Source of the DNA: a virus
Reading direction: 5' to 3' (one strand)
DNA: 64,000 bases
Virus record (IMG/VR): IMGVR_UViG_3300050821_006121
Location: 1-64,000 of that record
The translations under genes were made by a program, and so were the position numbers. This document shows, piece by piece, positions 17,808 to 35,631 of this stretch. Positions within the stretch are counted from its first letter, which is position 1. Each line of letters opens with the position of its first letter. Under the pieces are notes generated by a model. It was not told where the DNA came from. It worked only from the letters and a program-made list of their open reading frames with translations, and ran no database searches.

Positions 17808-17814
17808 CCAATAC

Positions 17815-18629: not shown

Positions 18630-18637
18630 CCAACTAC

Positions 18638-18719: not shown

Positions 18720-18723
18720 CCAC

Positions 18724-18795: not shown

Positions 18796-18802
18796 CCAAT
18801 TC

Positions 18803-18875
18803 GTCTCATAAGCTAATCTGGTGAAAGCGTCTGCCTGAAGAGCAGAAGAGCGTGGATCGAAACCACGATGAGACA
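18803..18875 (+). tRNA. tRNA-Phe(GAA)
   Basis: Acceptor GTCTCAT/ATGAGAC, loop cT-GAA-ga, encoded CCA. Confidence 0.75.
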
Positions 18876-18882
18876 CCACATC

Positions 18883-18951
18883 GGGCCGGGCTTCGGGAAG
18901 CAGGGACGCCTTGCAAGCATCTCGTTCTCAGTTCAACTCTGAGTCGGTCCA
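18883..18951 (+). tRNA. tRNA-Ala(TGC)
   Basis: Acceptor GGGCCGG/TCGGTCC includes G3.U70. Loop cT-TGC-aa, encoded CCA. Short D arm (69 nt total). Confidence 0.65.
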
Positions 18952-18961
18952 CCATATCTAT

Positions 18962-19037
18962 TGCCGTAAAGCCGAGCTAGGTGCACGGACTCGCCTGTTA
19001 AGCGATGATTAGCCCGGTTCGAATCCGGGGACGGCAG
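18962..19037 (+). tRNA. tRNA-Asn(GTT)
   Basis: Acceptor TGCCGTA/GACGGCA, loop cT-GTT-aa, encoded CCA. Confidence 0.7.
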
Positions 19038-19044
19038 CCAACAC

Positions 19045-19117
19045 GTCTCCATCTTCTAGCGACCCAGGAAATCGCCCTCTCACGGCGAGAACGCGGGTTT
19101 AAATCCCGCTGGAGACT
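19045..19117 (+). tRNA. tRNA-Glu(CTC)
   Basis: Acceptor GTCTCCA/TGGAGAC, loop cT-CTC-ac, encoded CCA. Confidence 0.7.
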
Positions 19118-19124
19118 CCACTAT

Positions 19125-19197
19125 CTTCTCGTAGCTCAATGGAGGAGCGCCCGGCTACGAACCGGGAGGAATGCAGGTTCGACCCCTGTCGGGAAGA
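19125..19197 (+). tRNA. tRNA-Arg(ACG)
   Basis: Acceptor CTTCTCG/CGGGAAG, loop cT-ACG-aa, encoded CCA. Confidence 0.7.
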
Positions 19198-19205
19198 CCA
19201 CCTAA

Positions 19206-19279
19206 CTGTGCGTAGCTCAGGCTGGTAGAGCGCCTGCTTTGGGAGCAGGATGTCGCGAGTTCGATTCCCGCCGCACAGA
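19206..19279 (+). tRNA. tRNA-Pro(TGG)
   Basis: Acceptor CTGTGCG/CGCACAG (C1-G72), loop tT-TGG-ga, encoded CCA. Confidence 0.75.
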
Positions 19280-19285
19280 CCAACT

Positions 19286-19356
19286 GCCTCTTTCGTTCAA
19301 AGGTAGGACGGCACGCTCTGAACGTGCAGACGGTGGATCGATACCATCAAGGGGTG
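19286..19356 (+). tRNA. tRNA-Gln(CTG)
   Basis: Acceptor GCCTCTT/AAGGGGT, loop cT-CTG-aa, encoded CCA. Confidence 0.7.
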
Positions 19357-19363
19357 CCAATAC

Positions 19364-19433
19364 GAGCAGATGCCCGAGTGGTTAGGGAGCGCTCTGCAAA
19401 AGCGTTTACGACAGTTCGATTCTGTCTCTGCTC
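19364..19433 (+). tRNA. tRNA-Cys(GCA)
   Basis: Acceptor GAGCAGA/TCTGCTC, loop cT-GCA-aa, encoded CCA. Confidence 0.7.
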
Positions 19434-19441
19434 TCCAATAC

Positions 19442-19516
19442 GGTTCCGTGGCTCGAATGGATAGGCATCCGCCTTCTAAGCGGACTTTGACGGAGGTTCG
19501 AATCCTCCCGGAATCG
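19442..19516 (+). tRNA. tRNA-Arg(TCT)
   Basis: Acceptor GGTTCCG/CGGAATC, loop cT-TCT-aa, T-arm GGAGG-TTCGAAT-CCTCC. Confidence 0.75.
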
Positions 19517-19517
19517 C

Positions 19518-19590
19518 GGTCACGTAGCTCAGCGGATAGAGCGTCCCGGTCCTAACGGGAAGGTCGCCAGTTCGAATCTGGCCGTGATCT
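19518..19590 (+). tRNA. tRNA-Arg(CCT)
   Basis: Acceptor GGTCACG/CGTGATC, loop gT-CCT-aa, encoded CCA. Confidence 0.75.
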
Positions 19591-19598
19591 CCAGATAA

Positions 19599-19683
19599 GG
19601 AACGTTGGGTGAGAGGATTAAACCACCTCCCTGCTAAGGAGGCAGACCGCAAGGTCTCCAGAGTTCAAATCTCTGACGTTCCG
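19599..19683 (+). tRNA. tRNA-Ser(GCT)
   Basis: Acceptor GGAACGT/ACGTTCC, loop cT-GCT-aa, long variable arm, encoded CCA. Confidence 0.75.
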
Positions 19684-19691
19684 CCATCTAC

Positions 19692-19763
19692 GCGGGCTTG
19701 GGTCATTGGCTGATCGGCGCCCTTCCAAGGCGTTCTAAAGGGGTTCGATTCCTCTAGCCCGCA
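19692..19763 (+). tRNA. tRNA-Gly(TCC)
   Basis: Acceptor GCGGGCT/AGCCCGC, loop cT-TCC-aa. Confidence 0.75.
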
Positions 19764-19764
19764 C

Positions 19765-19836
19765 GCCACGTTCGTCTAGCGGAAGGACGCTTGCCTTTCA
19801 AGCAGGAGAACATCAGTTCGAATCTGATACGTGGCT
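19765..19836 (+). tRNA. tRNA-Glu(TTC)
   Basis: Acceptor GCCACGT/ACGTGGC, loop cT-TTC-aa, encoded CCA. Confidence 0.75.
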
Positions 19837-19846
19837 CCATCTTTGT

Positions 19847-19914
19847 TGCGGGACCTTCGGCAAGGAAGCGGGTCTTTGAAACCCGCCAAGAGGGGTCGGC
19901 ACCCTCGCCCGCTG
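19847..19914 (+). tRNA. tRNA-Gln(TTG)
   Basis: Anticodon hairpin CGGGT-cT-TTG-aa-ACCCG, T-arm GAGGG-GTCGGCA-CCCTC, encoded CCA. The 1-72 and 7-66 pairs are weak. 68 nt. Confidence 0.55.
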
Positions 19915-19921
19915 CCAACAA

Positions 19922-19993
19922 CGCTCGACCTCGGTGGGGCAGGGGTCCTCTCTCATAAGGAGGTCCAGGCCGGTTCGACCCCGGCACGAGCGA
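19922..19993 (+). tRNA. tRNA with anticodon CAT (elongator Met or lysidine-type Ile2)
   Basis: Acceptor CGCTCGA/ACGAGCG, loop cT-CAT-aa, encoded CCA. Confidence 0.7.
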
Positions 19994-20000
19994 CCAATGA

Positions 20001-20073
20001 GCCGGTTAGGCCGATCAGGTGATGGCGCAGGTCTGTGGAACCTGTCAGGCTGGATCGATACCAGCAGCCGGTA
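20001..20073 (+). tRNA. tRNA-His(GTG), A73, no encoded G-1
   Basis: Acceptor GCCGGTT/AGCCGGT, loop cT-GTG-ga. Position -1 is A and the discriminator is A. Confidence 0.7.
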
Positions 20074-20074
20074 C

Positions 20075-20145
20075 GGGAGTGTGGTTCAACGGCAGAACGT
20101 CGGTCTCCAAAACCGAAGACCAGGGTTCGACACCTTGCACTCTCG
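20075..20145 (+). tRNA. tRNA-Trp(CCA)
   Basis: Acceptor GGGAGTG/CACTCTC, loop cT-CCA-aa, encoded CCA. Confidence 0.75.
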
Positions 20146-20184
20146 CCACTATTCTGGGCCAATCACAATGATCGAAAAAAGGGC

Positions 20185-20213
20185 TTTACGGCCCCCAGGC
20201 GATAGGCTATAGT
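20185..20213 (+). promoter_or_regulatory. Phage promoter GGGCTTTACG-N17-TATAGT
   Basis: Motif family member. The predicted TSS at about 20220/20221 coincides with the first base of the Y-RNA-like stem. Confidence 0.6.
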
Positions 20214-20220
20214 GCTGTTC

Positions 20221-20292
20221 GTGGGCGAGCCCCAGGACTTCGGTTATCAGGAAAATGACACACCGATATCCACCTACTGCGCTCGCCCGCAC
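20221..20292 (+). ncRNA. Y-RNA-like ncRNA 1
   Basis: Terminal helix GTGGGCGAGC / GCTCGCCC(GC)AC. Shares the conserved 5' GAGCCCCAG and 3' CTGCGCTC(G/A) halves, which form a bulged helix, with the two following modules. Confidence 0.6.
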
Positions 20293-20297
20293 TACTA

Positions 20298-20457
20298 CGC
20301 TGCCTCCGGGGCGCGAGCCCCAGAGTGTTGGTTATCCCTTGTAAGGAGGTGGTCGTCGGTTCGAATCCGACCGCAGGGCTGAAAGGTCTCGCGTAGCTCA
20401 GCGGTAGAGCACCTAAACCCGACGCTCGATTCTGCGCTCGTGCCCACGGAGGCAGCG
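20298..20457 (+). ncRNA. YrlA-like Y RNA 2 with permuted tRNA-like domain
   Basis: About 20-bp terminal helix (CGCTGCCTCCGGGGCGCGAGC / GCTCGTGCCCACGGAGGCAGCG). The interior holds a T-arm GTCGG-TTCGAAT-CCGAC, a closed acceptor-like hairpin, then a D-arm GCTC-AGCGGTA-GAGC. Confidence 0.7.
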
Positions 20458-20467
20458 ACTAGACGAC

Positions 20468-20576
20468 GTGACGACAGGTGATGAGCCCCAGGTTATCGGT
20501 TATCTTGGTTCGACTCCAAGACCCTTAAAACAGGTCTGTTCCGATCTCCGACACTGCGCTCATCTCCTGTCCTCAC
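20468..20576 (+). ncRNA. Y-RNA-like ncRNA 3
   Basis: 19-bp terminal helix GTGACGACAGGTGATGAGC / GCTCATCTCCTGTCCTCAC with two mismatches. Interior T-arm-like CTTGG-TTCGACT-CCAAG. Ends 23 nt before the rsr ATG. Confidence 0.6.
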
Positions 20577-20598
20577 CAACCTACAGGAGGGTAGACCC

Positions 20599-22185
20599 AT
20601 GGGACGATACGCAAACCTGGCCCGCCAGCCGGTTCCGCAGTCGGAGCCGCTGACCGCTGCGCAGGTCAAGAACAATGCCGGTGGCTTCGTCTACGCGCTG
20701 GACGACTGGAAGCGCTTGGAGCGCTTCCTGATCCTCGGCAGCGACTCGTCGACATACTACCAGAAGGCCCGCGACCTCACGCGCGAGAACGCCGCGTGCG
20801 TCGAGCGGTGCTGGAAGGCCAACCCGGAGCGGACGGCCGCCGTCATCGCGGACATCTCCAAGGACGGCCGAGCCCCGAAGAACGACCCCGCGATCTTCGC
20901 TCTGGCCCTGGGCGCCTCGAACGCCCTCCCGGCAGTGCGAGCCGCAGCCCTGGGCGCTATGCCGGCGGTCTGCCGCACCTCGACCCACCTCTTTATGTTC
21001 GTCGACTGCTGCCGGGCCCTGGGCCGCGGCTGGGGACGCGCGATGAAGCGCGCCGTGGCAGCCTGGTACGAGAGCCGGACGCCGGACAACCTGGCCTACC
21101 AGGTCGTCAAGTACCGCCAGCGCGAGTCCTACACCCACAAGCGCCTGATCGAGTCGAGCCACGCGCGCTCCCTCGGCTCTCCCGAGAGAGCGGCCGTGTA
21201 TCGCTGGGCGCGTGGCAAGCAGGACTGGCTCCCCGACCAGATCGAGGCGTGCCCGCTCATCATCCGCCAGCACGTGGGTGCCATGGCGGCCACCGACGCC
21301 GCGACCGTCGCCAAGTACGCCACGGTACTGCCGTGGGAGGCGCTGCCGACCGAGTTCGTCCGCAGCCCGGAGGTCACGCGCGCCCTCCTCCCGTTCATGG
21401 GCCTGGGCGCCCTGGTGCGCCAGCTGGGCATCATGACCGGGTCCGGCGTGATCGCGCCCCTGTCGTCGGAGGCGCGGCTGGTGGCCGACCGCCTGGGCGA
21501 CGCTGCCGAGATCAAGAAGGCTCGCCTGCACCCGTTCAACATCCTCCTGGCTCTGGCGACCTACAACCAGGGCCACGGCCACCTGGGAAAGGCTTCTTGG
21601 ACCCCGATGCCGGTGGTCCAGGACGCGCTTGAGGCCGCCTTCTACGCGTCCTTCGCCACTATCGCGCCTTCCGGCGCCCGGACCCTGATCGGGCTGGACG
21701 TGTCGGGATCGATGTCGTCTCCGCTCATGGGCTCGCCGCTGACCGTGTGCGAGGGCGCCGCGGCCATGGCCATGGCGACCATGAGGGCCGAGAAGAACTG
21801 GCACGTCATGGCCTTCGACCGGGGCTTGCGCGACCTGCGGCTGACCGCCAAGATGAGCCTGAGCGACGTGACCGAGAAGACCCGCAACGTCAACGGCGGC
21901 GGCACCGACTGCGCCTTGCCGATGCTATGGGCCCTGGAGAACAAGGTCGACGTCGACGTGTTCCAGATATTCACGGACAACGAGACGTGGGCCGGCCACG
22001 TTCACCCGTCCAAGGCGCTGCAGCACTACCGCCAGGGCCGGGGAATCGCGGCCAGGCTGGTCGTGGCAGGAATGACGTCCACTGGCTTCACGATCGCCGA
22101 CCCCCAGGACGGCGGCATGATGGATGTCGTGGGCTTCGACAGCGCCGCGCCGGCCGTGATCGCCGACTTCAGCCTGCCGAACTGA
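20599..22185 (+). CDS. rsr: Ro60 orthologue Rsr (TROVE domain plus vWA domain)
   Basis: NNAGGFVYALDDWKRLERFLILGSDSSTYY is the TROVE signature and GLDVSGSMSSP is a vWA MIDAS motif. 528 aa. SD GGAGGG. Confidence 0.9.
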   Translation: MGRYANLARQPVPQSEPLTAAQVKNNAGGFVYALDDWKRLERFLILGSDSSTYYQKARDLTRENAACVERCWKANPERTAAVIADISKDGRAPKNDPAIFALALGASNALPAVRAAALGAMPAVCRTSTHLFMFVDCCRALGRGWGRAMKRAVAAWYESRTPDNLAYQVVKYRQRESYTHKRLIESSHARSLGSPERAAVYRWARGKQDWLPDQIEACPLIIRQHVGAMAATDAATVAKYATVLPWEALPTEFVRSPEVTRALLPFMGLGALVRQLGIMTGSGVIAPLSSEARLVADRLGDAAEIKKARLHPFNILLALATYNQGHGHLGKASWTPMPVVQDALEAAFYASFATIAPSGARTLIGLDVSGSMSSPLMGSPLTVCEGAAAMAMATMRAEKNWHVMAFDRGLRDLRLTAKMSLSDVTEKTRNVNGGGTDCALPMLWALENKVDVDVFQIFTDNETWAGHVHPSKALQHYRQGRGIAARLVVAGMTSTGFTIADPQDGGMMDVVGFDSAAPAVIADFSLPN

Positions 22186-24437: not shown

Positions 24438-26030
24438 GTGTCAACAACCGCAGAGCGCATGATGGCACTCTTTGCCGGATTCTCAGGAGCTCACGGCACC
24501 CACGGCGAGCCCGTGCAGGACGGCCTCAAGTGGGCCATCAAGACCACGGCAAGAACCGTGCGCGAGCCCGTGACCAAGGCGTTGTGGGAACAACACTTGG
24601 CCGGAAAGATTTCGCTAGGTGTTATTCCAATACGCGAGGACGGCACCTGCTCGTGGGGCTCGATCGACGTCGACCAGTACGGCGAGGACTTCCTCAAGCT
24701 CATAGACCGGGTCGAGCGCGGCGGCTTCCCGTTGGTGCCGTGCCGCTCCAAGTCCGGCGGCCTGCACCTCCTGATGTTCCTGAAAGCACCAGAGCCGGCT
24801 GCCTCGGTGCAGTCGGCGCTTCGTGACATGGCCGCCAAGTTGGGCCTCGCTGGGTGCGAGATATTCCCCAAGCAGACCGTGGTCCTGGCGGACCGCGGCG
24901 ACCTGGGCAACTGGATCACGGTCCCGTTCGGTCCCACCTACGGCGGCAAGATCAAGGACCAGGTGGGCTTGAAGAAGACCGGCGCCGAGATGACGATCGA
25001 GGAGTTCCTGTTGATCGCCGAGAAGGCGCGGACCGACATCGCGTCCCTGGCAGAGCTCCGCAAGGCCGCCAGGCCGCGCGTGGCCGGCAACGTGGGAGAA
25101 GCTGCCGAGGCCCGGGTTCCCTTCGGCGACGGGCCGCCCTGCCTCCAGCACCTGGTCGAGCGCCAGATGCTGGGCGACGGCCGCAAGCGAGCGATCTTCC
25201 ACATGGGCATCTACTACAAGCGCGCCGCGCCCGACAACTGGGAGTCGGGCCTTGAGAAGGCCAACCAGGACTACATGACGCCGCCGCTGCCGTCTCAGGA
25301 GGTGTCGACGGTGATCAAGAGCCTGGTCAAGAAGGACTACAACTATCTGTGCCGGGAAGAACCCATGGTCAGCCACTGCGACGCGCTGACGTGCCGCAGC
25401 AGGCGCTTCGGCGTGGGGGAGGGCTCGGCCCTCCCGGCAATCGCGGGCCTGGCCAAGCTGGACACCGACCCCCCGATATGGTTTGCCGACGTCGAGGACA
25501 AGCGGATCGAGGCCACGACCCAGCAGCTCCAGAACTACAATCTGTTCCACATGCTGTGCATGGAGCGCCTCAACCGGTGCTACACGGCGGTCAAACATGC
25601 CGACTGGCTCATGCTGGTGGGCAACGCCATGGCAAACCTGACCCTGATCGAGGCGCCGCCAGAGGTGGGCGTCGGCGGGAGGTTCCTGGAGCTGCTCGAG
25701 GACTTCCTGACCAACAGGGCAGCCGCGGAACGCCGCGATGATATCTTATCGGGGCGTCCTTGGTTAGACGAGGAGGGCACCGCCGTCAGCAGCCTCCCGA
25801 CAATGCCGCGCTACTTCTTCCGGCTGCGCGACCTCCAGGCCCACGTGGTCAGGGAAGGCGAGCGGTCCATGGGCCGCAACTGGATGGCCCAGCGGCTCAA
25901 GGCCCTGGGCGGCGCCGACCACCTGTTCAACATCAAGGGCAAGGCGTGCGGGTGCTGGTGGGTGCCGGCGTCGTGCGTGAGCCCCGCGCCCAAGTTGGAT
26001 TTACCTAAGGGTAGGACGGAGGCGATATGA
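24438..26030 (+). CDS. AEP-family DNA primase/polymerase (prim-pol)
   Basis: GTG start. The N-terminal block ISLGVIPIREDGTCSWGSIDVD...SKSGGLHLLMF is typical of phage/plasmid AEP primases. Confidence 0.75.
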   Translation: MSTTAERMMALFAGFSGAHGTHGEPVQDGLKWAIKTTARTVREPVTKALWEQHLAGKISLGVIPIREDGTCSWGSIDVDQYGEDFLKLIDRVERGGFPLVPCRSKSGGLHLLMFLKAPEPAASVQSALRDMAAKLGLAGCEIFPKQTVVLADRGDLGNWITVPFGPTYGGKIKDQVGLKKTGAEMTIEEFLLIAEKARTDIASLAELRKAARPRVAGNVGEAAEARVPFGDGPPCLQHLVERQMLGDGRKRAIFHMGIYYKRAAPDNWESGLEKANQDYMTPPLPSQEVSTVIKSLVKKDYNYLCREEPMVSHCDALTCRSRRFGVGEGSALPAIAGLAKLDTDPPIWFADVEDKRIEATTQQLQNYNLFHMLCMERLNRCYTAVKHADWLMLVGNAMANLTLIEAPPEVGVGGRFLELLEDFLTNRAAAERRDDILSGRPWLDEEGTAVSSLPTMPRYFFRLRDLQAHVVREGERSMGRNWMAQRLKALGGADHLFNIKGKACGCWWVPASCVSPAPKLDLPKGRTEAI

Positions 26031-26194
26031 CGTTGCGCACGCCTTATGACGGCGCTCCATATTACTGCATCGTGTGCGGCGCAGGGTTCTATGAATTTAT
26101 TAACTGCGAACAGCTAGATTGTGAACGAGAAGATGTTCGTGAAGCTGAACAACGCCGAGACAAGATGATTCGCGATCATGAGAGGACCACATGA
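26027..26194 (+). CDS. Small Cys-containing protein (55 aa)
   Basis: ATGA overlaps at both ends. Contains CIVCG...C..LDC. Confidence 0.45.
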   Translation: MTLRTPYDGAPYYCIVCGAGFYEFINCEQLDCEREDVREAEQRRDKMIRDHERTT

Positions 26195-26367
26195 CCAACC
26201 GCTACTACTGGGTCACTCTCCTAGAGTGGGAGGCCATGACCCCGGCCGTCCGCAAGCACGTCGAGGACTGGGCCCGGGCCAACGGCCTGGAGGTCGCGGT
26301 GGACCTGCGCGACGACCACCAGAAGGGTCCCAGGACCCCAGAACCTGAGGAGGACGTCGATGTTTGA
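26191..26367 (+). CDS. Small hypothetical protein (58 aa)
   Basis: ATGA-coupled to the upstream ORF, with high GC3. Confidence 0.45.
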   Translation: MTNRYYWVTLLEWEAMTPAVRKHVEDWARANGLEVAVDLRDDHQKGPRTPEPEEDVDV

Positions 26368-26440
26368 CCCGGTGTGGCTCGTCCTGGGCGCGCTGGCCGC
26401 GGCCCTGATCGTGTGCGTCGTGATGGGGTGGAGGGCATGA
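26360..26440 (+). CDS. Tiny single-TM peptide (26 aa)
   Basis: Sequence MFDPVWLVLGALAAALIVCVVMGWRA. ATGA-coupled to the mutase-like gene. Confidence 0.3.
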   Translation: MFDPVWLVLGALAAALIVCVVMGWRA

Positions 26441-27549
26441 AGACCGCCCTGATCATAGGCGGCGGGTTCGCCGGCTGCGCCGCGGCCCACCAGCTCCAGC
26501 TGCAGCGCGGCTGGGACGTGACCCTGGTCGAGGCGGGGCCCCAGCTCGGCGCGGGCGTGCGGACCCAGTGGCTCGGGGGCCACCCCCATACCTTCGGCCC
26601 CCGACATTTCCTCACGCAGAGGCCGGAGCTATTCGAATTCTTGAATAGCTACGTGCCTATGCGTCGATGCCCGGAACATCAGTTCCTGGCCTACGTCGAG
26701 CAGGACCAGGCCTTCTACAACTACCCGATCCACGAGGACGACATCCGGAGAATGCCCGACCGCGCGCAGATATACGGCGAGCGCGACCTGGGCGTCGCGG
26801 CGAGCGCGGCCGAGAACTTCGAGGAGTTCTGGATCCGGTCGGTCGGGGAGACGCTCTACCACAAGTTCGTCGACTCTTACTCCAAAAAGATGTGGCAGGT
26901 AAAGAGCAACACCGAGATCGACACGTTCGCCTGGTCGCCCAAGGGCGTGACCATCAAGCAGGGCCCCAGGGCCGCGTGGGACACGGCCATCTCGGCCTAC
27001 CCCAGGGCCGCCAACGGCTACGACGACTACTTCAGGGTGGCCACCGACGGCGTCGAGGTCGTGCTCGACTGCTGCCCGTCCCAGTACTGGATCGGGCGAA
27101 AGACGGCCATGGTCGGGCGCGAGGTGCGCAAGTTCGACGCGATCATCAGCACGATCTCGCCCGACTCGCTCTTCGACGAGTGCTACGGCCGCCTCCCGTT
27201 CGTCGGGAGGGACGTCGTGCCGATCGTGCTGCCGGTCGAGTTCGCCCTGCCGAAGGACGTGTACTTCTGCTACTACACGGGTGAAGAAAAATACACCCGC
27301 GTGACCGAGTACAAGAAGTTCACCAGGCACCGCGACCCGACGTCGACCCTGATCACGATCGAGACGCCGTCCGCGAACGGCAGGCTGTACCCGATGCCTG
27401 TAAAGAGGTACAAGGACTTGGCGCAGAAGTACTTCGATCTTATGCCTGATCGAGTCTTCTCGATCGGGCGTGCCGGTTCCTACGACTACGGGGTCGATAT
27501 CGATGACTGCATCGCGCAGGCCATGGACGTGGTGGAAAAGCTAAAATGA
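26437..27549 (+). CDS. UDP-galactopyranose mutase (Glf)-like flavoprotein
   Basis: IIGGGFAGCAAA is an FAD-binding Rossmann motif. FGPRHF, NFEEFWIRSVGETLYHKFVDSYSKKMW, YTRVTEYKKF and RLYPMP..GRAGSYDY align by eye with E. coli Glf blocks. Confidence 0.75.
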   Translation: MKTALIIGGGFAGCAAAHQLQLQRGWDVTLVEAGPQLGAGVRTQWLGGHPHTFGPRHFLTQRPELFEFLNSYVPMRRCPEHQFLAYVEQDQAFYNYPIHEDDIRRMPDRAQIYGERDLGVAASAAENFEEFWIRSVGETLYHKFVDSYSKKMWQVKSNTEIDTFAWSPKGVTIKQGPRAAWDTAISAYPRAANGYDDYFRVATDGVEVVLDCCPSQYWIGRKTAMVGREVRKFDAIISTISPDSLFDECYGRLPFVGRDVVPIVLPVEFALPKDVYFCYYTGEEKYTRVTEYKKFTRHRDPTSTLITIETPSANGRLYPMPVKRYKDLAQKYFDLMPDRVFSIGRAGSYDYGVDIDDCIAQAMDVVEKLK

Positions 27550-28070
27550 AGATCGGCTATGCAGACCCGCCGTACATCGGCTGCGCGTATCTCTACAAAG
27601 ACCATCCTGACTATGCCGGGGAGGTTGATATGGCGGTGCTTATCGAGCGACTCGATTCTGACTATGACGGCTGGCTCCTGCATACCCACGCCACGCCAGA
27701 AGCGTTCGCCTTCCTAGGTCCGTTAGTGAAGGCCAAGGAGGGTGCTCGATGGTGTGCTTGGGTCAAAACTTTCGCTGCGTTCAGGCGGAATGTTCCGGTG
27801 GCTTATGCCTGGGAGCCCGTTATCATAAAACCCGCGCGGAAGCCAGTAGTGAGTAAGCGGATGGTGATGCGGGACTGGATCGACTGTCCCATGACCATGA
27901 GGAAAGGCTTGACCGGGGTGAAGCCCGAGAAAGTCTGCCATTGGACTTTCGAATTGCTTGGCATGCGACCGGAAGATGAGCTTTGTGATCTGTTTCCCGG
28001 TACGGGCGCCGTGACCAAGGCATGGAAGACGTGGCAAGGAAAGTTTACTCTCCCAGCGGAGATTACATGA
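27546..28070 (+). CDS. Small DNA methyltransferase (DPPY motif; N6-adenine or N4-cytosine)
   Basis: GYADPPY is motif IV, near the N-terminus, and DLFPGTGAV is motif I, near the C-terminus. This is a permuted beta-class order. Confidence 0.7.
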   Translation: MKIGYADPPYIGCAYLYKDHPDYAGEVDMAVLIERLDSDYDGWLLHTHATPEAFAFLGPLVKAKEGARWCAWVKTFAAFRRNVPVAYAWEPVIIKPARKPVVSKRMVMRDWIDCPMTMRKGLTGVKPEKVCHWTFELLGMRPEDELCDLFPGTGAVTKAWKTWQGKFTLPAEIT

Positions 28071-28306
28071 CCTTCGCCTTCGACGACCTAAACGAGCGCG
28101 GCCTCCGCGACGGCCTGATCGAGCTGGCCGACATCCGGCGCTCCATAAAGGGGCGCCTGCAGGACGCCGAGACCCAGGTCCAGGTCCACGAGACCGCGGC
28201 CAACGCGCTGCGCAAGGTCGAGGCGCTCCTGGCCCAGGTCGAGGGGCACATGCGGGGAAGGCTGGAGCAGATTGAGCGCAAAAGGAAACAGGAGCAGACC
28301 ACATGA
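28067..28306 (+). CDS. Coiled-coil hypothetical protein
   Basis: The ATG at 28067 overlaps the upstream stop (ATGA). Confidence 0.5.
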   Translation: MTFAFDDLNERGLRDGLIELADIRRSIKGRLQDAETQVQVHETAANALRKVEALLAQVEGHMRGRLEQIERKRKQEQTT

Positions 28307-29541
28307 TCAACACTCTGATCCACTACGCCTCGACCAACCCACTTCTGATTGGCGGCATTGGCACGCTGTTGTTCGGGTCGGTCATGTATCTCGTGCGTGA
28401 CATTCCAGTTCGCATCTACCACACCATCAAGCGCATGACCACCATCGAGATCAGCCTGACCTCGGACAGCTTTCTCTACCACGAGATACTGCGGGTCTTG
28501 AGCACAGCCCGGATCGGTCTATTCGCCCGCAACTACTCGACCGACCACGAGGGAGACGTGGTGTCGGGCTACGGCGGCTCGGTCGCCATCTTTGAGCGCC
28601 GCCTGGTCACGTTCAATCGCGAGCTGATCGAGGGCAAGCTGAGACTTGACGAGAAGCTCCACGTCACGGTGTTCAGCCGCGACGTCGGTGTCCTCAGAAA
28701 GATGATCGCCAAGGCGCGGTTGCCCAAGCCCGATGATATGGTCAAGATATATTCGGCCTCCAGCGGCTACTGGGGGTCTCCGATCAGGAGGCGTAAGCGT
28801 GGCCTCGATACTATCTTTACCAACGGCGACGCCAAGGACGCGATCATTGCCAAGATAAGATGGTTCGTGGCCAACGAGCAGTGGTACGTTAAGCGCGGCA
28901 TCCCCTACAAACTGATCTTCCTGCTCCACGGCGAGCCGGGGACAGGGAAGACATCGCTGATCTATGGGATAGCGTCCTATTTTGACCGAGGTATCGGTTC
29001 AGTGGACACTATCGCCAATATCGACGACACCCTCAAGAACTTGCCTGAGAACACTTTCGCCCTAATCGAAGACATCGACATGATATCGATCAGCCGCGAC
29101 GAAGATGACGACGACACCCCAGGCAAGCCCCAGGCAGCGGCACCAGCCCGAGCAGAGCGCGACCTGACGTCCACCGCGACTCAGATGAGCGCGCTCCAGG
29201 TCCTAATCAACGCCCTTGACGGTATAGCCACGCCCCACGGCCTGATCATGTTCATCACCACCAACTTCAGAGAGCGGCTTGATGCAGCGCTCATCAGGCC
29301 CGGACGTGTGGACTGCGACCTTGAGATCACGCCGCTAGAGGCCGACGCCACCGAGGAAATGTTTGTGGCATTCTACGGTGACGAATATGCTCACCTCATC
29401 CAGACTTATACTCAGTTGCCTCAATTTAAACCTCGTACTGGCGCCGTGCTTCAGCAATTGTTCATGACCGAGAGCCCGGAGCGAGCCGTCGAGCGCCTGC
29501 GTCAGCACGCGCGGCTGATGATCGTGGGGGCCGCGTCTTGA
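28303..29541 (+). CDS. Bcs1-like membrane-anchored AAA+ ATPase
   Basis: N-terminal TM LLIGGIGTLLFGSVMYLV and a BCS1_N-like region. Walker A LHGEPGTGKTS, Walker B ALIEDID, arginine finger region RPGRVD. Confidence 0.75.
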   Translation: MINTLIHYASTNPLLIGGIGTLLFGSVMYLVRDIPVRIYHTIKRMTTIEISLTSDSFLYHEILRVLSTARIGLFARNYSTDHEGDVVSGYGGSVAIFERRLVTFNRELIEGKLRLDEKLHVTVFSRDVGVLRKMIAKARLPKPDDMVKIYSASSGYWGSPIRRRKRGLDTIFTNGDAKDAIIAKIRWFVANEQWYVKRGIPYKLIFLLHGEPGTGKTSLIYGIASYFDRGIGSVDTIANIDDTLKNLPENTFALIEDIDMISISRDEDDDDTPGKPQAAAPARAERDLTSTATQMSALQVLINALDGIATPHGLIMFITTNFRERLDAALIRPGRVDCDLEITPLEADATEEMFVAFYGDEYAHLIQTYTQLPQFKPRTGAVLQQLFMTESPERAVERLRQHARLMIVGAAS

Positions 29542-31061
29542 ATCCGGAGATCATCCTCGGCCCTCCCGGTTGTGGAAAAACTACGTCACTACTCGACATT
29601 GTAGACGAGGAGCTGGCCAGGGGCACCGAGCCCGAGAAGATCGGGTTCGTCAGCTTCACCAGGAAGGCGGCGGACGAGGCGGCCGAACGCGCCGCGACGC
29701 GCTTCAACCTTCCCCGATCGCGATTCCCGTGGTTTAGAACAATTCACAGCACTTGTTTTCGTCGGCTTGGTATGCGGCGCGATGACGTCCTGGAGGGACG
29801 GCGCCTGCAGGAGTTTGGTCACTACGCGGGAATACGCATCACAGGTCGCTGGACCGACGACGGCACGATGTCGGGCTTTGAGCTCGGTGACCGAATCATC
29901 TTCATGGAGAACCTCTCGCGGGTCAAGGGCACGAGTCTCAGGGACGAGTACCACGAGATCAGCGATAACCTGCCGTGGCGGGAGGTAGAGCGGGTCGCCG
30001 CCGCCCTGGCACAGTTCAAGCGCGAACGTGGTCTCATGGACTACACCGACATGCTGTCTGAGTTCGTCGCTGCGGATCGAGATTTAGGTCTAGAGGTGCT
30101 GCTCTGCGACGAAAGTCAGGATTCGAGTTTTTTACAATGGCAGGTCATCGGCCTCATGGCCCGGTCGTGCCGCCGTGTCGTTGTCGGAGCCGACGATGAC
30201 CAGGCCATCTTTTCCTGGAGCGGGGCCGATGTCGAGCACCTGATAAGCCTTCCCGGCACCGTGAGGGTCCTGGACCAGAGCTACCGCGTGCCACGCAAGG
30301 TGCAGGCCCTGGCCAGCAGCATCATCGACCGGGTCCACAATCGGCGGCCCAAGGAGTGGAAGGCCCGCGACTCGGAGGGCGTCGTCGGCCACGCAGTCTC
30401 CGCCGAGGAGCTCTCCTGGGACGACCCCGACACCGGCGGCAACAGCCCGCCGATCCTGGTCCTGGCCCGCAACGCCTTTGTGCTGCGCGACCAGGTGATC
30501 CCCACGCTGCGCAGGCAGGGCGTGCTGTACGAGAAGTCGGGTTATCCCTCGATCGCCCCGGGTATCCTGGAGGCCATAACGCACTGGGAGCGCCTGCGCC
30601 AGGGCGCGTCCCTCCCGGTCGGCGCGTGCCAGGAGATCTACCGGCACATGTCGTCCGGCGCCAGGATAGCCCGCGGCTTCAAGGAGCTGCCGGGCATGGA
30701 CGACTCGGAAGAGCTGTCCATGACCGATCTGAGGCAGAGGGGCGGCCTGCTCACGGAGGCGATATGGCACGAGGCCATGGACCGCCTCCCCAGGGACGAC
30801 GTGGGCTACATCGTTCGAATGAGACAGCGGGGCGAACGGTTGAAAGCACGCCCGAGAGTTTGGCTTTCCACCATCCACTCTGCCAAGGGCGGCGAGGCCG
30901 ATCACGTGGTGCTGTTCAAGGAGGTCGCCAGGCGGACGGCCAGGGAGGCCAATATCAATCCGGATGCCGAGCGAAGGGTTTGGTATGTCGGCTGTACTAG
31001 AGCCAAGGAAAAGCTTACAATTGTCGAGTCCCAAGGCCCACAGGAATGTGCATGGGTATGA
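29538..31061 (+). CDS. UvrD/Rep-like superfamily 1 helicase
   Basis: Motifs GPPGCGKTT, LLCDESQD, GADDDQAIFSW, STIHSAKGGEADHVVL and VGCTRAKEKL. Confidence 0.85.
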   Translation: MNPEIILGPPGCGKTTSLLDIVDEELARGTEPEKIGFVSFTRKAADEAAERAATRFNLPRSRFPWFRTIHSTCFRRLGMRRDDVLEGRRLQEFGHYAGIRITGRWTDDGTMSGFELGDRIIFMENLSRVKGTSLRDEYHEISDNLPWREVERVAAALAQFKRERGLMDYTDMLSEFVAADRDLGLEVLLCDESQDSSFLQWQVIGLMARSCRRVVVGADDDQAIFSWSGADVEHLISLPGTVRVLDQSYRVPRKVQALASSIIDRVHNRRPKEWKARDSEGVVGHAVSAEELSWDDPDTGGNSPPILVLARNAFVLRDQVIPTLRRQGVLYEKSGYPSIAPGILEAITHWERLRQGASLPVGACQEIYRHMSSGARIARGFKELPGMDDSEELSMTDLRQRGGLLTEAIWHEAMDRLPRDDVGYIVRMRQRGERLKARPRVWLSTIHSAKGGEADHVVLFKEVARRTAREANINPDAERRVWYVGCTRAKEKLTIVESQGPQECAWV

Positions 31062-32709: not shown

Positions 32710-34666
32710 GCTAAAGGACTACCACCGAGGCGGCGAGCAGCTACCACTGATCGTCCCGCCATCGGCCTGGAAGGTGCCGACCGAACTGCCGGACCTTAGG
32801 CGCATGGGTATGATCGCGGTCGATACAGAGGGGCGTGATGATAGCATCGGTGCAGGTAGGGGATCTGGATGGGTCTATGGATCAGGTTTTATTTCTGGCG
32901 TCGCTGTAGCCTGGGATGGCGGTTCGCTCTACGCTCCCGTAAGGCATCCCGATACAGACTGCCTTGATTCGCAAAGGGTCGCGAACTGGCTTCGCGATCA
33001 CTTTGCGACACCTGACCTTAGGGTCATCATGCACCACGCGTCCCACGACGTGGGTTGGCTCAAGGCGGATTGGGGACTAGAGTCCCCAATCCGCCTTGAC
33101 GACACCGAGGGCATGGCCGCGATCATCGACGAGAACAGGCTCAAGTACAACCTCGATAGCCTCTGTGAATGGCGCGGCATCGCCGGGAAGGACGAGACCT
33201 TATTGAACGAGGCCGCCGCGGCCTATGGGGTCGATCCCAAGAGCGGCATGCACAAGCTACCGGCGCGCTTCGTTGGCTCCTATGCCGAGCAGGACGCCAC
33301 GTGTACGCTGGCCCTGGCCAAGTCGCTCGACCCGGTGCTGGACGAGGAGGGCACGCGCAAGGCCTACGAGCTTGAGATGGACCTAGTGCCCATGGTCCGG
33401 GAGATGCGGGCCCGTGGCATTCGGGTGGACCTGGACGCGGCACAGAGGGCCTATACGACGCTGATCGATCTGCGCAACGCGGTCTTCAGGGACCTGTGCG
33501 ATCGGCTCGATACCCGGGTCGGCATGGAGGAGATTGGGCGCACGTCGTGGCTGGAGCGAGTGTTCGACAAGGCCAAGATCACCTATCCTAGGACCGCGCC
33601 GACCAAGAATTTTCCCAATGGGCAGGCGTCCTTTAGGTCCGGGTCGCTTGGGTGGATGGACTCCCACCCCCACTGGCTGCCCCAACTGATCGTCAAGGCC
33701 GACCGCTACAATAACGCGGCCGAGAAGTTCGTCAAGAACTTCATTCTGGACTATGCCCACAAGGGCCGACTGCACGCGTCGATCAATCAGTACCGAGGCG
33801 AGGAGGGCGGCGCTCGCACGTCGCGGTTTTCCTATTCGGATCCGGCACTCCAGCAGATGCCGGCGCGGGATAAGGAGATTACGCCCTTGATTCGGGGGTG
33901 CTTTTTGCCGGAGGAGGGATGCGCGTGGCTCAAGGCAGACATTTCCCAAACCGAATATCGATTGATTGTCCATTTTGCCTCCCTGCTCAAGTTACCCAAG
34001 GCCGACGAGGCCGTTGCCAAGTACAGAGACAACCCCGACACGGACTTCCACAAGGATATTCAGGACTGGGGCACGCTCGACCGTGACGGTGCCAAGTCTC
34101 TGAACTTTGCCAAGGCGTACCGAGCGGGCATTCCCAGGTTCGCCCAACTACTCAAGAAAGACGAGTCGGAGGCCGAGGAATACTACGACCGCTACGATTC
34201 CGAGCGGCCCTACGTTCGTGGCTTGGCCGAATACTGTCAGCGCCTAGCCGAGCGCCGCGGCTATCTGACCTTGATCGACGGCGCCAGGATACATTTTGAT
34301 CGATGGGAACAGGCGTGGCGTCAGGGTGGTTACATCAATCCCAAGAGCCTGGAGGACGCGCGCAAAGCTTGGCCAGGGGAGAAATTACGACGCGCGTTCT
34401 GCTACCATGCCGTCAATTCGCTCGTCCAAGGTTCCGGAGCCCGGCAATCGAAGTTGGGCATACGCGCCTGCTGGCGCGAGGGGATTGTTCCTTTACTCCA
34501 GGTCCACGATGATCTAAATCGTAGCGTGTCCGATGAGCGCGAAGGCACATACATGGCTGAATTGATGCGCGATTGCATCAAGCTCAGTGTACCGATCAAG
34601 GTGGACCTTAAGTTTGGGCACAATTGGGCCGATGCTAAGCACAACTGGAAGGAGTTAAACAGATGA
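32696..34666 (+). CDS. polA: Family A DNA polymerase with 3'-5' exonuclease domain
   Basis: Exo motifs IAVDTEG and HHASHDVGWL. Pol motifs ADISQTEYRL (A), RDGAKSLNFAKAYRAG (B) and LLQVHDD (C). Confidence 0.9.
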   Translation: MAKAKLKDYHRGGEQLPLIVPPSAWKVPTELPDLRRMGMIAVDTEGRDDSIGAGRGSGWVYGSGFISGVAVAWDGGSLYAPVRHPDTDCLDSQRVANWLRDHFATPDLRVIMHHASHDVGWLKADWGLESPIRLDDTEGMAAIIDENRLKYNLDSLCEWRGIAGKDETLLNEAAAAYGVDPKSGMHKLPARFVGSYAEQDATCTLALAKSLDPVLDEEGTRKAYELEMDLVPMVREMRARGIRVDLDAAQRAYTTLIDLRNAVFRDLCDRLDTRVGMEEIGRTSWLERVFDKAKITYPRTAPTKNFPNGQASFRSGSLGWMDSHPHWLPQLIVKADRYNNAAEKFVKNFILDYAHKGRLHASINQYRGEEGGARTSRFSYSDPALQQMPARDKEITPLIRGCFLPEEGCAWLKADISQTEYRLIVHFASLLKLPKADEAVAKYRDNPDTDFHKDIQDWGTLDRDGAKSLNFAKAYRAGIPRFAQLLKKDESEAEEYYDRYDSERPYVRGLAEYCQRLAERRGYLTLIDGARIHFDRWEQAWRQGGYINPKSLEDARKAWPGEKLRRAFCYHAVNSLVQGSGARQSKLGIRACWREGIVPLLQVHDDLNRSVSDEREGTYMAELMRDCIKLSVPIKVDLKFGHNWADAKHNWKELNR

Positions 34667-35631
34667 CATTTTATCTTGGCAGTAAGGCCGACCACGCCAA
34701 CGACATTCTCAAGATTGTTCTGGCCAAGCGCAAGTCGGGCCAAACCTTTGTCGACGCCTTCACAGGTGGTGCCAACGTCATCTGCCGCGTGCCCAATACC
34801 GATGGCCCGCGCCTAGGTGCCGACATCAACCCCTACATGGTCGCGCTCCACACCGCACTGGCCAACGGCTGGCAGCCACCGTTAGCGGTGAGCGAGAAAG
34901 AGTACAACGCGATCAAGAAGAAGCCCCAGGACTTCCCAGCAGAGCTTGTGGGCTTCGTCGGCACCGGCTGCACCTTTGGCAGCATGTGGTTTTCGACTTA
35001 TGTGAAACCGGAAAAAGACAAGCCCACACGCTGCACCATTGCGCGTAACAACTGCCTGTGCACGGCTGAAGGACTCCGAGGTGCCAAGTTCGTCTGTTCT
35101 AGCTACGATCAACTGGAGATACCACCAAACTCTTTATGCTACCTCGACCCTCCATACAGCGGCACGACCGGCTACCTCGGCGCAAAGACCAAGATCGCCA
35201 TTGGCGAATCGCTGAACAAGAACGACTGGAACGCCAAGAAGTTCTGGCAATGGGCCGACCGCATGGTCGACCGGGGCCACACGGTCTTTGTCTCCGAGTA
35301 CAAAGGCCCCCAGGCCGAGGCCTACCCCACGCCGCCCCGGACCGATGCCCACAACGCCACCATGGCCGAGCTAAAGCAGCTCCAGGCCGACATGCAGGCC
35401 CTAGGCGACGCGCCCACGCCGGCCGATATGGTGGCCAAGCGCGAAGAACTGGCCTCCCGGTTGGCCGAACATGAAGCCGCACGTCGGGCGCCTTGTGAGG
35501 CTTTGGCGGCCCGCTGGAAGGTGGTCTGGGAGAAGGAGGTCAAGGTCAATTTTGCCGCGGTAAGCGTCGACGTCGAGACTGGCGAATCGGCCAAGACCGA
35601 GACTGAGAAGCTATTCCATCGCGAGGCCTGA
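34663..35631 (+). CDS. Dam-like N6-adenine DNA methyltransferase with C-terminal extension
   Basis: FVDAFTGGANV is motif I and CYLDPPY is motif IV. The C-terminal 100 aa form an Ala-rich coiled coil. Confidence 0.8.
   Translation: MTFYLGSKADHANDILKIVLAKRKSGQTFVDAFTGGANVICRVPNTDGPRLGADINPYMVALHTALANGWQPPLAVSEKEYNAIKKKPQDFPAELVGFVGTGCTFGSMWFSTYVKPEKDKPTRCTIARNNCLCTAEGLRGAKFVCSSYDQLEIPPNSLCYLDPPYSGTTGYLGAKTKIAIGESLNKNDWNAKKFWQWADRMVDRGHTVFVSEYKGPQAEAYPTPPRTDAHNATMAELKQLQADMQALGDAPTPADMVAKREELASRLAEHEAARRAPCEALAARWKVVWEKEVKVNFAAVSVDVETGESAKTETEKLFHREA

Follow-up and report, generated by a model that had tools for sequence, protein, structure and literature searches.

A divergent Glf-like flavoprotein gene in the replication module of an uncultured phage, and its possible part in a putative furanose glycosylation pathway encoded 44 kb away

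The stretch of viral DNA analysed here, 64,000 nucleotides in length (the window), is part of a 90-kb phage contig and carries on its plus strand a Glf-like flavoprotein gene of 370 codons, extending from an ATG at 26437 to a stop codon at 27547-27549 (26437..27549) and predicted to encode an NDP-sugar pyranose/furanose mutase of a divergent subfamily. An independent gene call on the source contig chose the same start. The gene is surrounded by an AEP primase, a BCS1-like AAA ATPase, a UvrD helicase, a C5 methyltransferase, PolA and a D12 Dam, and Pfam finds in the flanks the primase, helicase and polymerase that the initial annotation had placed nearby. The AEP-type primase gene (24438..26030, plus strand; Pfam AEP-TOTE, E 1.9e-11; 84% identical in a sister phage) heads a translationally coupled chain that includes the Glf-like gene. 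Two small ORFs of 55 and 58 amino acids (26027..26367, plus strand), without family matches in Pfam or PHROG, bridge the two by stop/start overlaps; the primase gene and the 55-aa ORF overlap as ATGA, as do the 55-aa and 58-aa ORFs, and the end of the latter is overlapped by a 26-codon ORF (26360..26440, plus strand). This tiny ORF encodes the hydrophobic peptide MFDPVWLVLGALAAALIVCVVMGWRA, and its stop overlaps the Glf-like ATG, again as ATGA. The coupling to tiny ORFs upstream, remarked on at the outset, can therefore be followed through to the primase. Having no conserved counterpart in the sister phage, the 26-aa ORF may be a translational coupler only. Directly before the Glf-like ATG lies a purine-rich stretch, GGAGGG (26430..26435, plus strand), a possible ribosome-binding site; its short distance from the ATG agrees with re-initiation once the overlapping tiny ORF has been translated. 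Scanning the surroundings of the gene for promoters and terminators gave nothing beyond shuffled expectation, an Rfam search returned tRNAs only, and no match appeared when 20 kb of the window were compared by megablast with 50,697 phage records. The nearest PolA, 39% identical, is that of a Pelagibacter-type phage.

On the downstream side, the Glf-like stop is overlapped as ATGA by an ORF (27546..28070, plus strand) encoding a 174-aa protein with an N-terminal ADPPY motif and DLFPGTG near the C-terminus. The initial annotation described the gene as ATGA-coupled to a DNA methyltransferase here; the overlap holds, while the identity is at the level of motifs, which would suit a minimal beta-class DNA methyltransferase, and the protein has no match in Pfam, NCBIfam, PHROG or PDB sequences. 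A hypothetical protein encoded by Xanthomonas phage PBR31 shares 70% identity with it. The BCS1-like AAA ATPase and UvrD helicase genes that follow (28303..31061, plus strand; Pfam) are conserved neighbours, syntenic and 75-81% identical in the sister phage. The 174-aa gene and the C5 methyltransferase gene, on the other hand, are missing from the sister phage and have a foreign codon composition (GC3 of 0.65 for the 174-aa gene versus 0.88 for the Glf-like gene), and we therefore regard their adjacency to the Glf-like gene as incidental. Joint action of a DNA methyltransferase and the Glf-like enzyme was considered and rejected, as the methyltransferases are lineage-specific inserts. The Glf-like gene itself has the native GC3 of the phage and occupies the same position in the sister phage, at 70% identity; on this account a recent moron was rejected as a reading, and the moron label first suggested for the gene does not suit it.

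A question arises, is the encoded protein a UDP-galactopyranose mutase (UGM)? It matches Pfam GLF (PF03275) with 93.8 bits against a cut-off of 26.3, across the entire C-terminal domain, and NAD_binding_8 (PF13450) at the N-terminus, and it matches solved UGMs end to end (3HDQ, E 6e-23), so that the ORF, at the coordinates first given, was rightly read as a Glf homologue. Over positions 2-367 the subfamily profile matches UGM and UNGM entries of the PDB, all solved UGMs among them, with E values from 1e-44 to 1e-28. Its AlphaFold (AF2) model has a pLDDT of 93.6 and TM scores of 0.84-0.86 to solved UGM structures, and the closest solved structures are all mutases. In common with bacterial UGM (E. 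coli K-12 b2036, D. radiodurans 3HDQ, K. pneumoniae 2BI7), the protein has a three-domain fold and an N-terminal FAD-binding GxGxxG. Yet its score to the TIGR00031 equivalog model, 80.7 bits, is far below the cut-off of 303.75, and its identity to true Glf/canonical UGM is about 25%. The protein is a genuine Glf-fold flavoprotein and is not an orthologue of canonical UGM. For this reason galactofuranose is not its likeliest product, and UDP-galactose is probably not its substrate. Homology over the full length and a retained catalytic core place it within the superfamily of NDP-sugar pyranose/furanose mutases, which includes Glf, UNGM, Fcf2, HS41.17 and others.

The active site is for the most part kept. 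The equivalents of E. coli Y151, W156, R247, R278, E298, Y311, Y346 and D348 are found across the subfamily (Y148, W153, R258, R288, E309, Y318, Y351 and D354 in phage numbering), and the diphosphate-binding arginine R288, which corresponds to K. pneumoniae R280 and E. coli R278, is invariant. The canonical H56, on the other hand, is an invariant Arg56 in the subfamily, Y181 is represented by Ala180/Trp181, and the mobile-loop arginine (K. pneumoniae R174, E. coli R170) is not conserved. Where canonical UGM has its mobile loop, the subfamily has a conserved SPKGV..K.GPRAAWDTAISAYP segment, with Lys replacing the loop Arg; K169 of the SPKG motif is Lys in 26 of the 31 aligned subfamily sequences and, depending on the alignment, lies at or within one residue of the loop Arg. 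With Arg for H56, Lys169 for the loop Arg and Ala180/Trp181 for Tyr181, the protein may differ from UGM in catalysis or in the binding of its substrate.

By sequence comparison, the protein is a member of a large, distinct and uncharacterised subfamily of the UGM superfamily. More than 1,900 database proteins belong to it at E <= 1e-5, the best 120 of these being at least 59% identical; they span many phyla and are automatically annotated as UDP-galactopyranose mutase, some being named merely 'FAD-dependent oxidoreductase' or 'NAD(P)-binding protein' in several sources. Bacterial members are found in clusters for surface polysaccharides, accompanied by heptose and ABC transporter genes. Among 32 bacterial subfamily loci, each at least 12 kb long, an HldE-like gene is present in 18, an SDR of the 'Epimerase_c' type in 15, a split transketolase in 12-14, GmhA in 10, and radical-SAM/SPASM and TylF methyltransferase genes in 9 each; none of these occurs in any of 31 canonical UGM loci used for comparison. 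The neighbourhoods of the subfamily hold heptose and deoxysugar genes, and no galactofuranosyltransferase partner was found. Relatives in viral contigs were retrieved only with the family alignment, a single-sequence scan giving none. When all proteins of the bacterial cassettes were searched against the window by tblastn, the Glf-like gene was the sole match; this phage lacks the radical-SAM, TylF and heptose partners.

Where, then, would partners of the enzyme be encoded? Pfam scans of about 74 window ORFs revealed no glycosyltransferase, as the initial annotation had observed for the same 64 kb; it had also advised searching the rest of the genome, a check that proved decisive, and there, on the same contig (locus L106) but outside the window, we find three candidate glycosyltransferases together with a nucleotide-sugar tailoring set. 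The cluster occupies contig positions 76780-85770, about 44 kb downstream of the Glf-like gene, flanked by head and tail genes; it lies between a 426-aa capsid-region gene and the tail genes. Its tailoring genes encode an RmlB-like 4,6-dehydratase, closest to dTDP-glucose 4,6-dehydratase, a WbuC-type cupin that clears the TIGR04366 WbuC cut-off, an SDR with 37% identity to the SDR flanking Glf-like genes in bacteria, and a sugar C-methyltransferase of the TcaB9/TylC3 type; in the cluster as a whole the SDRs number two. The transferase candidates are a GT-A-like DUF5672 protein and two GT9 (heptosyltransferase)-like proteins, one of which is fused to a TPR domain. For the DUF5672 protein we found no PDB sequence match and no informative literature, and the predicted fold is what informs its assignment; the model has a pLDDT of 94.7 and its best 50 PDB matches are all GT-A glycosyltransferases. 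The 337-aa GT9-like protein likewise has no Pfam or PDB match as a single query and required a family profile, which matches WaaF (1PSW, E 2e-9), 3TOV, WaaC and TibC; 7 of the 18 family members match Pfam GT9. The GT9 assignment of the TPR protein is a 30-residue Pfam match at its C-terminus (E 1e-4). A small Dam-like NPPF protein (PHROG 111) is also encoded within the cluster. No gene of the GT2, WbbI or GlfT type was found in the phage, nor any association of the Glf-like gene with a galactofuranosyltransferase or Galf-containing glycan gene.

In this phage the Glf-like gene and the cluster lie 44 kb apart and in different expression modules, which speaks against a joint function. A split layout of the same kind is seen in the sister phage (one record, loci L001 and L108), and in two further IMG/VR contigs (L097 and L089) the Glf-like gene sits inside a homologous cluster. 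The gene is thus found together with this glycan cluster in four viral contigs, being contiguous with it in two, and the functional link proposed between them draws on comparative genomics of these four contigs. Linkage of Glf-like genes to tailoring enzymes and glycosyltransferases is found in bacterial cassettes, in viral cassettes and on the phage's own contig.

Taking fold, active site and genomic associations together, we lean slightly towards the reading that the Glf-like enzyme is an FAD-dependent pyranose-to-furanose mutase of a distinct UGM subfamily that would serve a furanose glycosylation pathway encoded by the distant cluster. The Glf-like gene would be transcribed together with the replication genes, its biochemical partners being encoded 44 kb away. 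The cluster enzymes would dehydrate, epimerise, C-methylate and reduce a host NDP-sugar, the Glf-like enzyme would contract the ring in a UGM-like manner, the N5 of the reduced flavin attacking C1, and the phage transferases would then pass the furanose to an acceptor. We infer a substrate that is more likely a 6-deoxy or C-methylated hexose, or a nucleotide-carried heptose, than UDP-galactose. As to the identity of the sugar, the cluster is ambiguous, for the phage dehydratase resembles dTDP-glucose enzymes and the transferases are heptosyl-like. Mutases acting on sugars other than UDP-Gal do exist within the Glf superfamily: C. jejuni HS41.17 is a characterised CDP-fucopyranose / 6-deoxy-altropyranose mutase, and HS10.16 and HS41.15 are predicted GDP-6-deoxy-heptopyranose mutases; each of the three lies among 4,6-dehydratase, epimerase and reductase genes and provides a 6-deoxy or heptose furanose donor for glycans (PMC12369002, PMC10680097). 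The likeness of these enzymes to the phage protein is one of common superfamily and gene context; the phage subfamily differs in its radical-SAM, TylF and transketolase neighbours and in its occurrence in phages.

The acceptor is most likely a protein, for example a virion component, given that a TPR-glycosyltransferase fusion is present and that the cluster lies in the structural module. Candidate glycosyltransferase genes thus stand among the structural genes of the phage, and one product joins a protein-recognition domain, TPR, to a C-terminus of GT9 type. A precedent is FlmG, a TPR-glycosyltransferase with a protein as its substrate (PMC7591256); mycobacteriophage virions, too, are glycosylated (Freeman et al. 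2023). The phage protein resembles FlmG of Caulobacter and TibC-type enzymes in the fusion of a TPR domain to a GT-B-like domain, and the phage resembles virus systems of protein glycosylation in having glycosyltransferase and methyltransferase genes within the structural module, as for the mycobacteriophages Che8, Corndog and Myrna, whose glycosyltransferases act on capsid and tail proteins. The structural matches of the DUF5672 model include PBCV-1 A64R, also from virus-encoded protein glycosylation, and the GT9-like family matches TibC by sequence, yet we found no family membership at the sequence level with Che8, Corndog, Myrna, A64R, FlmG or TibC. The present system also differs from the virus systems in its Gram-negative-like host and in its furanose mutase and C-methyltransferase, and protein glycosylation is here predicted from genes.

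Second in likelihood as acceptor comes the host envelope (LPS core, O-antigen or capsule). Remodelled by the same enzyme and cluster in the course of infection, it might for instance become closed to superinfecting phages or no longer re-adsorb the progeny. We consider this possible, if rather unlikely. GT9 enzymes of known function act mostly on the LPS inner core, the best solved matches of the phage family being WaaF and WaaC, and the surface-polysaccharide clusters of the bacterial members are in line with it, as is a candidate tailspike that resembles pectate lyase and hints at a polysaccharide as receptor. Against it, no flippase, polymerase, lipid-carrier transferase or Gtr-type gene was seen in the phage, the usual targets of TPR-glycosyltransferase fusions are proteins (PMC7591256), and the GT9-like matches include a protein heptosyltransferase, TibC. 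Classic surface-conversion systems, moreover, belong to temperate phages, whereas this genome has no integrase that we could find and looks virulent. Of the O-antigen-altering moron suggested from the window, surface modification is thus possible, in which case it would act through the phage's own transferases, and the moron label does not suit a gene of native GC3. Could the mutase act with no phage partner at all, as a canonical UGM or as an enzyme that depletes a host donor pool (UDP-Galp or ADP-heptose)? Substrates of this type are present in any Gram-negative host, the protein retains the fold of UGM and most of its active-site residues, and within the window the gene stands apart from any other sugar gene. 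Such a stand-alone role is nevertheless improbable, considering the low TIGR00031 score, the sharp difference between subfamily and UGM neighbourhoods, and the glycan cluster that recurs in the four viral contigs. As the mutase equilibrium is about 92:8 towards the pyranose (PMC12369002), a lone mutase would also achieve little.

Less probable again is a different flavin-dependent activity on the Glf fold, such as an oxidoreductase step, with a sugar nucleotide or some other metabolite as substrate, in place of ring contraction. The invariant Arg in place of His56, the rebuilt mobile loop, the oxidoreductase and NAD(P)-binding labels given to some members, and the co-occurrence in bacteria with a radical-SAM enzyme of unknown role would agree with it, but R288 and the Tyr, Trp, Glu and Asp residues that line the pocket in UGM vary little or not at all, and only mutases appear among the nearest solved structures. 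We know of no characterised PF03275 member that is anything other than a pyranose/furanose mutase. Least probable of the readings weighed is the other possibility raised at the outset, a furanose donor, UDP-galactofuranose or another, for a modified base in virion DNA. This has a published precedent in Rhizobium phage RL38J1 and other Pootjesviridae, where a phage UGM is the proposed source of UDP-Galf for DNA with glycosylated 5-hydroxycytosine (5hoC) and is accompanied by DNA glycosyltransferases and a 5-hydroxycytosine synthase (NAR 2026, PMC13326640). As in RL38J1, a Glf-family enzyme is here encoded alongside glycosyltransferases, GT-B-like and GT-A-like, and the gene sits in the replication module beside DNA methyltransferase genes; the Dam-like protein inside the glycan cluster leaves some slight room for a connection to nucleic acid. 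RL38J1 gp084, however, closely matches canonical UGM, and to it are linked DNA glycosyltransferases, a nucleotide kinase and a 5hoC synthase of the thymidylate-synthase type (PMC13326640), none of which was found in the present genome, whereas our protein is no UGM orthologue and is only 25% identical to the UGM of Agrobacterium phage Atu_ph04. Across the 90 kb, covered by Pfam in the window and by precomputed annotations in the remaining contig, a search that very divergent homologues could escape, we detected no thymidylate-synthase homologue, no pyrimidine hydroxylase or hydroxymethylase of that type, no dNMP kinase and no dNTP-pool enzymes excluding a canonical base. The phage encodes instead a C5-cytosine methyltransferase, D12 Dam and further Dam-like genes, which imply ordinary C and A as substrates, and those flanking the Glf-like gene are not conserved along with it. 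As far as profile and fold searches show, its transferases resemble GT9 heptosyltransferases, generic GT-A folds and a TPR-containing protein transferase, and not known DNA glycosyltransferases. Since several DNA methyltransferases are present and no synthase of hydroxy- or hydroxymethyl-pyrimidines was found, DNA glycosylation is unlikely, and the suggestion that the gene supplies a sugar for DNA hypermodification is not upheld.

Among phages, experimental proof of virion glycosylation is, to our knowledge, confined to a few mycobacteriophages; among large viruses, chloroviruses are known to have it. If the preferred reading, a furanose pathway served by the Glf-like enzyme, is true, the biology of virion glycosylation, which is relevant to immune recognition, receptor masking and phage stability, would gain a self-contained furanose system from an uncultured phage lineage of the Proteobacteria type. 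The subfamily carries the name UDP-galactopyranose mutase, yet its genomic context points to another sugar; renaming it and finding its substrate would uncover a new bacterial surface-sugar pathway. For window-based scans there is a caution, in that the partners of a seemingly orphan gene may be tens of kilobases away. A more detailed version of the preferred reading, which we put forward tentatively and regard as doubtful in its full extent, is that a virulent phage of a Gram-negative-type host makes its own furanose donor, a C-methylated 6-deoxyhexose or a heptose, through this uncharacterised Glf branch, that TPR-fused heptosyltransferase-like and DUF5672 GT-A enzymes place the sugar on virion proteins, and that the same branch, together with the radical-SAM enzyme, forms an unknown but widespread bacterial pathway repeatedly captured by phages. 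In P22-like viral contigs, radical-SAM, Glf-like and heptose-pathway genes adjoin TerL.

As judged from its sequence, the Glf-like gene falls in a branch of the Glf mutases that is divergent, occurs widely and is at present mis-named, and it appears to have been recruited into a putative phage-encoded glycosylation system. A phage genome is the source of the window, which spans 5450-69449 of a metagenomic contig of 90,202 bp and carries genes for a tail-collar fibre, a GH25 lysozyme, TerL and homing endonucleases, as well as 30 tRNAs in an array. The Glf-like ORF (26437-27549, +; 370 aa) starts at the ATG at 26437, where a separate gene call for the source contig also puts it, and stops at 27547-27549. 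The initial annotation of this ORF as a Glf homologue holds, as its product scores 93.8 bits against Pfam GLF (cut-off 26.3), and so do the ATGA couplings and the replication setting, with overlaps read on both sides and primase, UvrD and PolA found nearby. The stop overlaps, as ATGA, the start of the ORF for a 174-aa protein (27546-28070, +), and the Glf-like start overlaps in the same manner the stop of a 26-codon hydrophobic ORF (26360-26440). This small ORF overlaps the end of another of 58 aa, and ATGA couplings connect the 58-aa ORF with one of 55 aa and the latter with the AEP primase gene. The order is AEP primase, small ORFs, Glf-like, 174-aa protein, 79-aa protein, BCS1-like AAA and UvrD, with the C5 methyltransferase, PolA and D12 Dam after UvrD; therefore the Glf-like gene lies within a translationally coupled chain running from primase to UvrD. 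The BCS1-like AAA ATPase (BCS1_N + AAA; PHROG 7485; 28303-29541, +) stands between the Glf-like gene and UvrD both here and in a sister phage.

The Glf-like protein has the N-terminal FAD/NAD Rossmann motif (Pfam), all its significant matches among solved structures are UDP-galactopyranose mutases (UGMs), and its AlphaFold model (pLDDT 93.6) superimposes on UGMs with TM 0.84-0.86. It is not an orthologue of UGM: on the curated equivalog TIGR00031 it reaches 80.7 bits, where the cut-off is 303.75, and its identity to true UGMs is ~25%. Alignment of E. coli Glf with 120 close relatives, plus a more diverse set of 31, using landmark positions verified on the K-12 sequence, reveals that equivalents of Y151, W156, R247, R278, E298, Y311, Y346 and D348 are common to E. 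coli Glf and the subfamily, R278 being one of the two diphosphate arginines. On the other hand, His56 of E. coli Glf is replaced by an invariant Arg, and the mobile loop bearing the second arginine by a conserved segment, SPKGV..K.GPRAAWDTAISAYP, in which Lys169 occupies the alignment position of the canonical loop Arg or an adjacent one. Mutase chemistry is thus probably kept, whereas the substrate pocket is predicted to differ from that of UGM.

A word-indexed search yields ~1,900 proteins at E ≤ 1e-5, the best 120 of which are all at least 59% identical, and among representatives of clusters made at 50% identity a search reveals a graded series that extends to canonical UGMs. Scanning one genome per species places the subfamily in Proteobacteria (including Pelagibacteraceae and Bradyrhizobium), Planctomycetota, Myxococcota, cyanobacteria, Firmicutes and others. 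Genes for a TylF-type methyltransferase, a radical-SAM/SPASM enzyme, a Methyltransf_3 O-methyltransferase and an SDR flank it in four annotated bacterial contexts, with split transketolase genes and the sedoheptulose-to-NDP-heptose genes (GmhA, GmhB, HldE and a transaldolase) close by. The surrounding cassette is conserved among the bacterial loci L002, L003, L006 and L007. Neighbours were counted by BLAST against labelled cassette proteins at 32 subfamily loci, each 12 kb or longer, and at 31 canonical UGM loci from the same scan. HldE-like genes (18/32), the 'Epimerase_c' type of SDR (15/32), split transketolase (12-14/32), GmhA (10/32), radical-SAM/SPASM and TylF methyltransferase (9/32 each) accompany the subfamily, and each is found at 0/31 canonical loci. 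The cassette suggests a heptose-derived sugar with heavy tailoring, as yet uncharacterised. Characterised Glf-family enzymes use CDP-fucose or 6-deoxy-altrose, and others are predicted for GDP-6-deoxy-heptoses (PMC12369002, PMC10680097); therefore a non-galactose substrate has precedent. No homologue of the bacterial cassette partner proteins is present in the window.

IMG/VR contains fourteen related loci, eight of them clearly phage by TerL and, in L096 among these eight, also by a P22-type portal. Directly upstream of TerL these phage loci have radical-SAM/SPASM, Glf-like and 267-aa protein genes, with GmhA-like, nucleotidyltransferase-like and SDR genes close by. In the P22-like loci L091-L096, L098 and L099 this module occupies ~8800-13400 of each locus, its radical-SAM/SPASM enzymes are 50-58% identical to that of the bacterial cassette, and it is a separate phage sugar module, apparently undescribed. 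The sister phage, whose replication proteins are 75-84% identical to those of the window phage, has a Glf-like gene of 70% identity at the same position, between primase and BCS1-like AAA, and lacks the 174-aa protein and the C5 methyltransferase. GC3 is 0.63-0.65 for the latter two genes, whereas the Glf-like gene and the conserved genes around it have 0.88. Given this conservation and native GC3, the Glf-like gene is long-standing in the phage lineage, which speaks against the earlier proposal of a moron, and its adjacency to the methyltransferase genes is incidental.

Pfam scans of the ~74 window ORFs detect no glycosyltransferase, as initially noted, and no thymidylate-synthase homologue or dNMP kinase. 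The search of the rest of the genome for glycosyltransferases, recommended at that time, finds a DUF5672 protein and two GT9-like proteins on the same contig. The DUF5672 gene lies ~7 kb past the window end in an alternative assembly of the same phage, and it heads a sugar cluster in a 90%-identical relative whose contig bridges both ends. With the cluster's 311-aa protein as query, a homologue (P0395) was found on the window's own contig, where the cluster occupies positions 76780-85770 (locus L106), followed by tail genes. In order, it encodes DUF5672 (238 aa), a small ORF (88 aa), a Methyltransf_13/14 sugar C-methyltransferase (414 aa), a GT9-like protein of 337 aa, an SDR of 286 aa, a small Dam-like NPPF protein (154 aa), a 179-aa cupin passing the WbuC model, a 328-aa 4,6-dehydratase with dTDP-glucose dehydratase as its closest match and a 467-aa TPR protein whose C-terminus is GT9-like. 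WaaF, WaaC, a GT9 structure and TibC, a protein heptosyltransferase, make up the seven best PDB matches of the 337-aa family profile, and 7/18 family members match Pfam GT9. The DUF5672 model (pLDDT 94.7) has GT-A glycosyltransferases as all of its best 50 structural matches, with modest TM (0.4-0.57), a PBCV-1 capsid-glycosylating enzyme among them. The phage transferases have no PHROG family. The 286-aa SDR is 37% identical to the SDR flanking the Glf-like gene in bacteria.

In the sister phage a single record holds both the Glf-like gene (L001) and the cluster (L108). Another viral contig, L097, has the order GT9-like, SDR, cupin, 315-aa methyltransferase-like, Glf-like, DUF5672, TPR-GT9, and L089 resembles it, with the Glf-like gene inside a homologous cluster. 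This linkage, seen on four viral contigs (two split, two contiguous), is suggestive rather than statistical. In the most likely pathway, a host NDP-sugar would be dehydrated at C4/C6, then epimerised, C-methylated and reduced by the cluster enzymes; the Glf-like enzyme, using reduced flavin as in UGM, would convert pyranose to furanose, and the GT-A and GT9-like enzymes would move the furanose to an acceptor.

GT9 enzymes normally act on the LPS core, and for this reason the host envelope is the main alternative to the acceptor that we favour, a protein and most simply a virion protein. A protein acceptor is preferred because of the TPR fusion as in FlmG, the TibC match and the location of the cluster between head and tail genes; virion glycosylation in mycobacteriophages, reportedly described by Freeman et al. 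in 2023, is a precedent. FlmG is itself the precedent for a TPR fusion in protein glycosylation (PMC7591256). In Pootjesviridae, a phage UGM was proposed in 2026 to make UDP-Galf for glycosylated 5-hydroxycytosine (PMC13326640), therefore the initial suggestion that the gene supplies a DNA sugar is a respectable one. That system combines a mutase closely matching UGM with DNA glycosyltransferases, a nucleotide kinase and a 5hoC synthase of the thymidylate-synthase type (PMC13326640), whereas the present protein is a distant relative, and Pfam, covering essentially all of the 90-kb genome, detects neither a 5hoC-type synthase nor a nucleotide kinase. Moreover, the phage C5 and N6 methyltransferases need canonical bases. 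The one remaining hint of a link to DNA is the small Dam-like protein encoded in the glycan cluster; we consider DNA glycosylation very improbable as the role of the gene.

At least three recognisable DNA methyltransferase genes are present: C5 (31456-32709, +), D12 Dam (34663-35631, +) and the small NPPF Dam-like gene (154 aa; 12414-12878 of L106), whose position in the cluster is conserved in the sister phage. The 174-aa protein is a further candidate; its ORF and ATGA coupling are as first described, and its naming as a methyltransferase stands on motifs, an N-terminal ADPPY and DLFPGTG near the C-terminus in beta-class order, with no match in any profile library searched or in the PDB. A hypothetical protein of Xanthomonas phage PBR31 shares 70% identity with it, a hint that the host is Xanthomonas-like. 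Because methyltransferases are many, a PNP_UDP_1 gene product (nucleoside phosphorylase or MTA/SAH nucleosidase-like; 7282-7968, +, overlapping the end of the GH25 lysozyme gene) might serve SAH recycling.

The 30 tRNA genes (16049-20148, +) represent most amino acids and are broken by homing-endonuclease genes, HNH (17196-17744) and NUMOD3 (17978-18580). Directly 3' of the array, after a 450-bp gap (20149-20598), lies a gene for a Ro60/TROVE + vWA protein (20599-22185, +; Pfam E 2e-66); in Rfam, no Y-RNA family scores at the gathering level. In the sister phage its place is taken by PNKP and RNA ligase.
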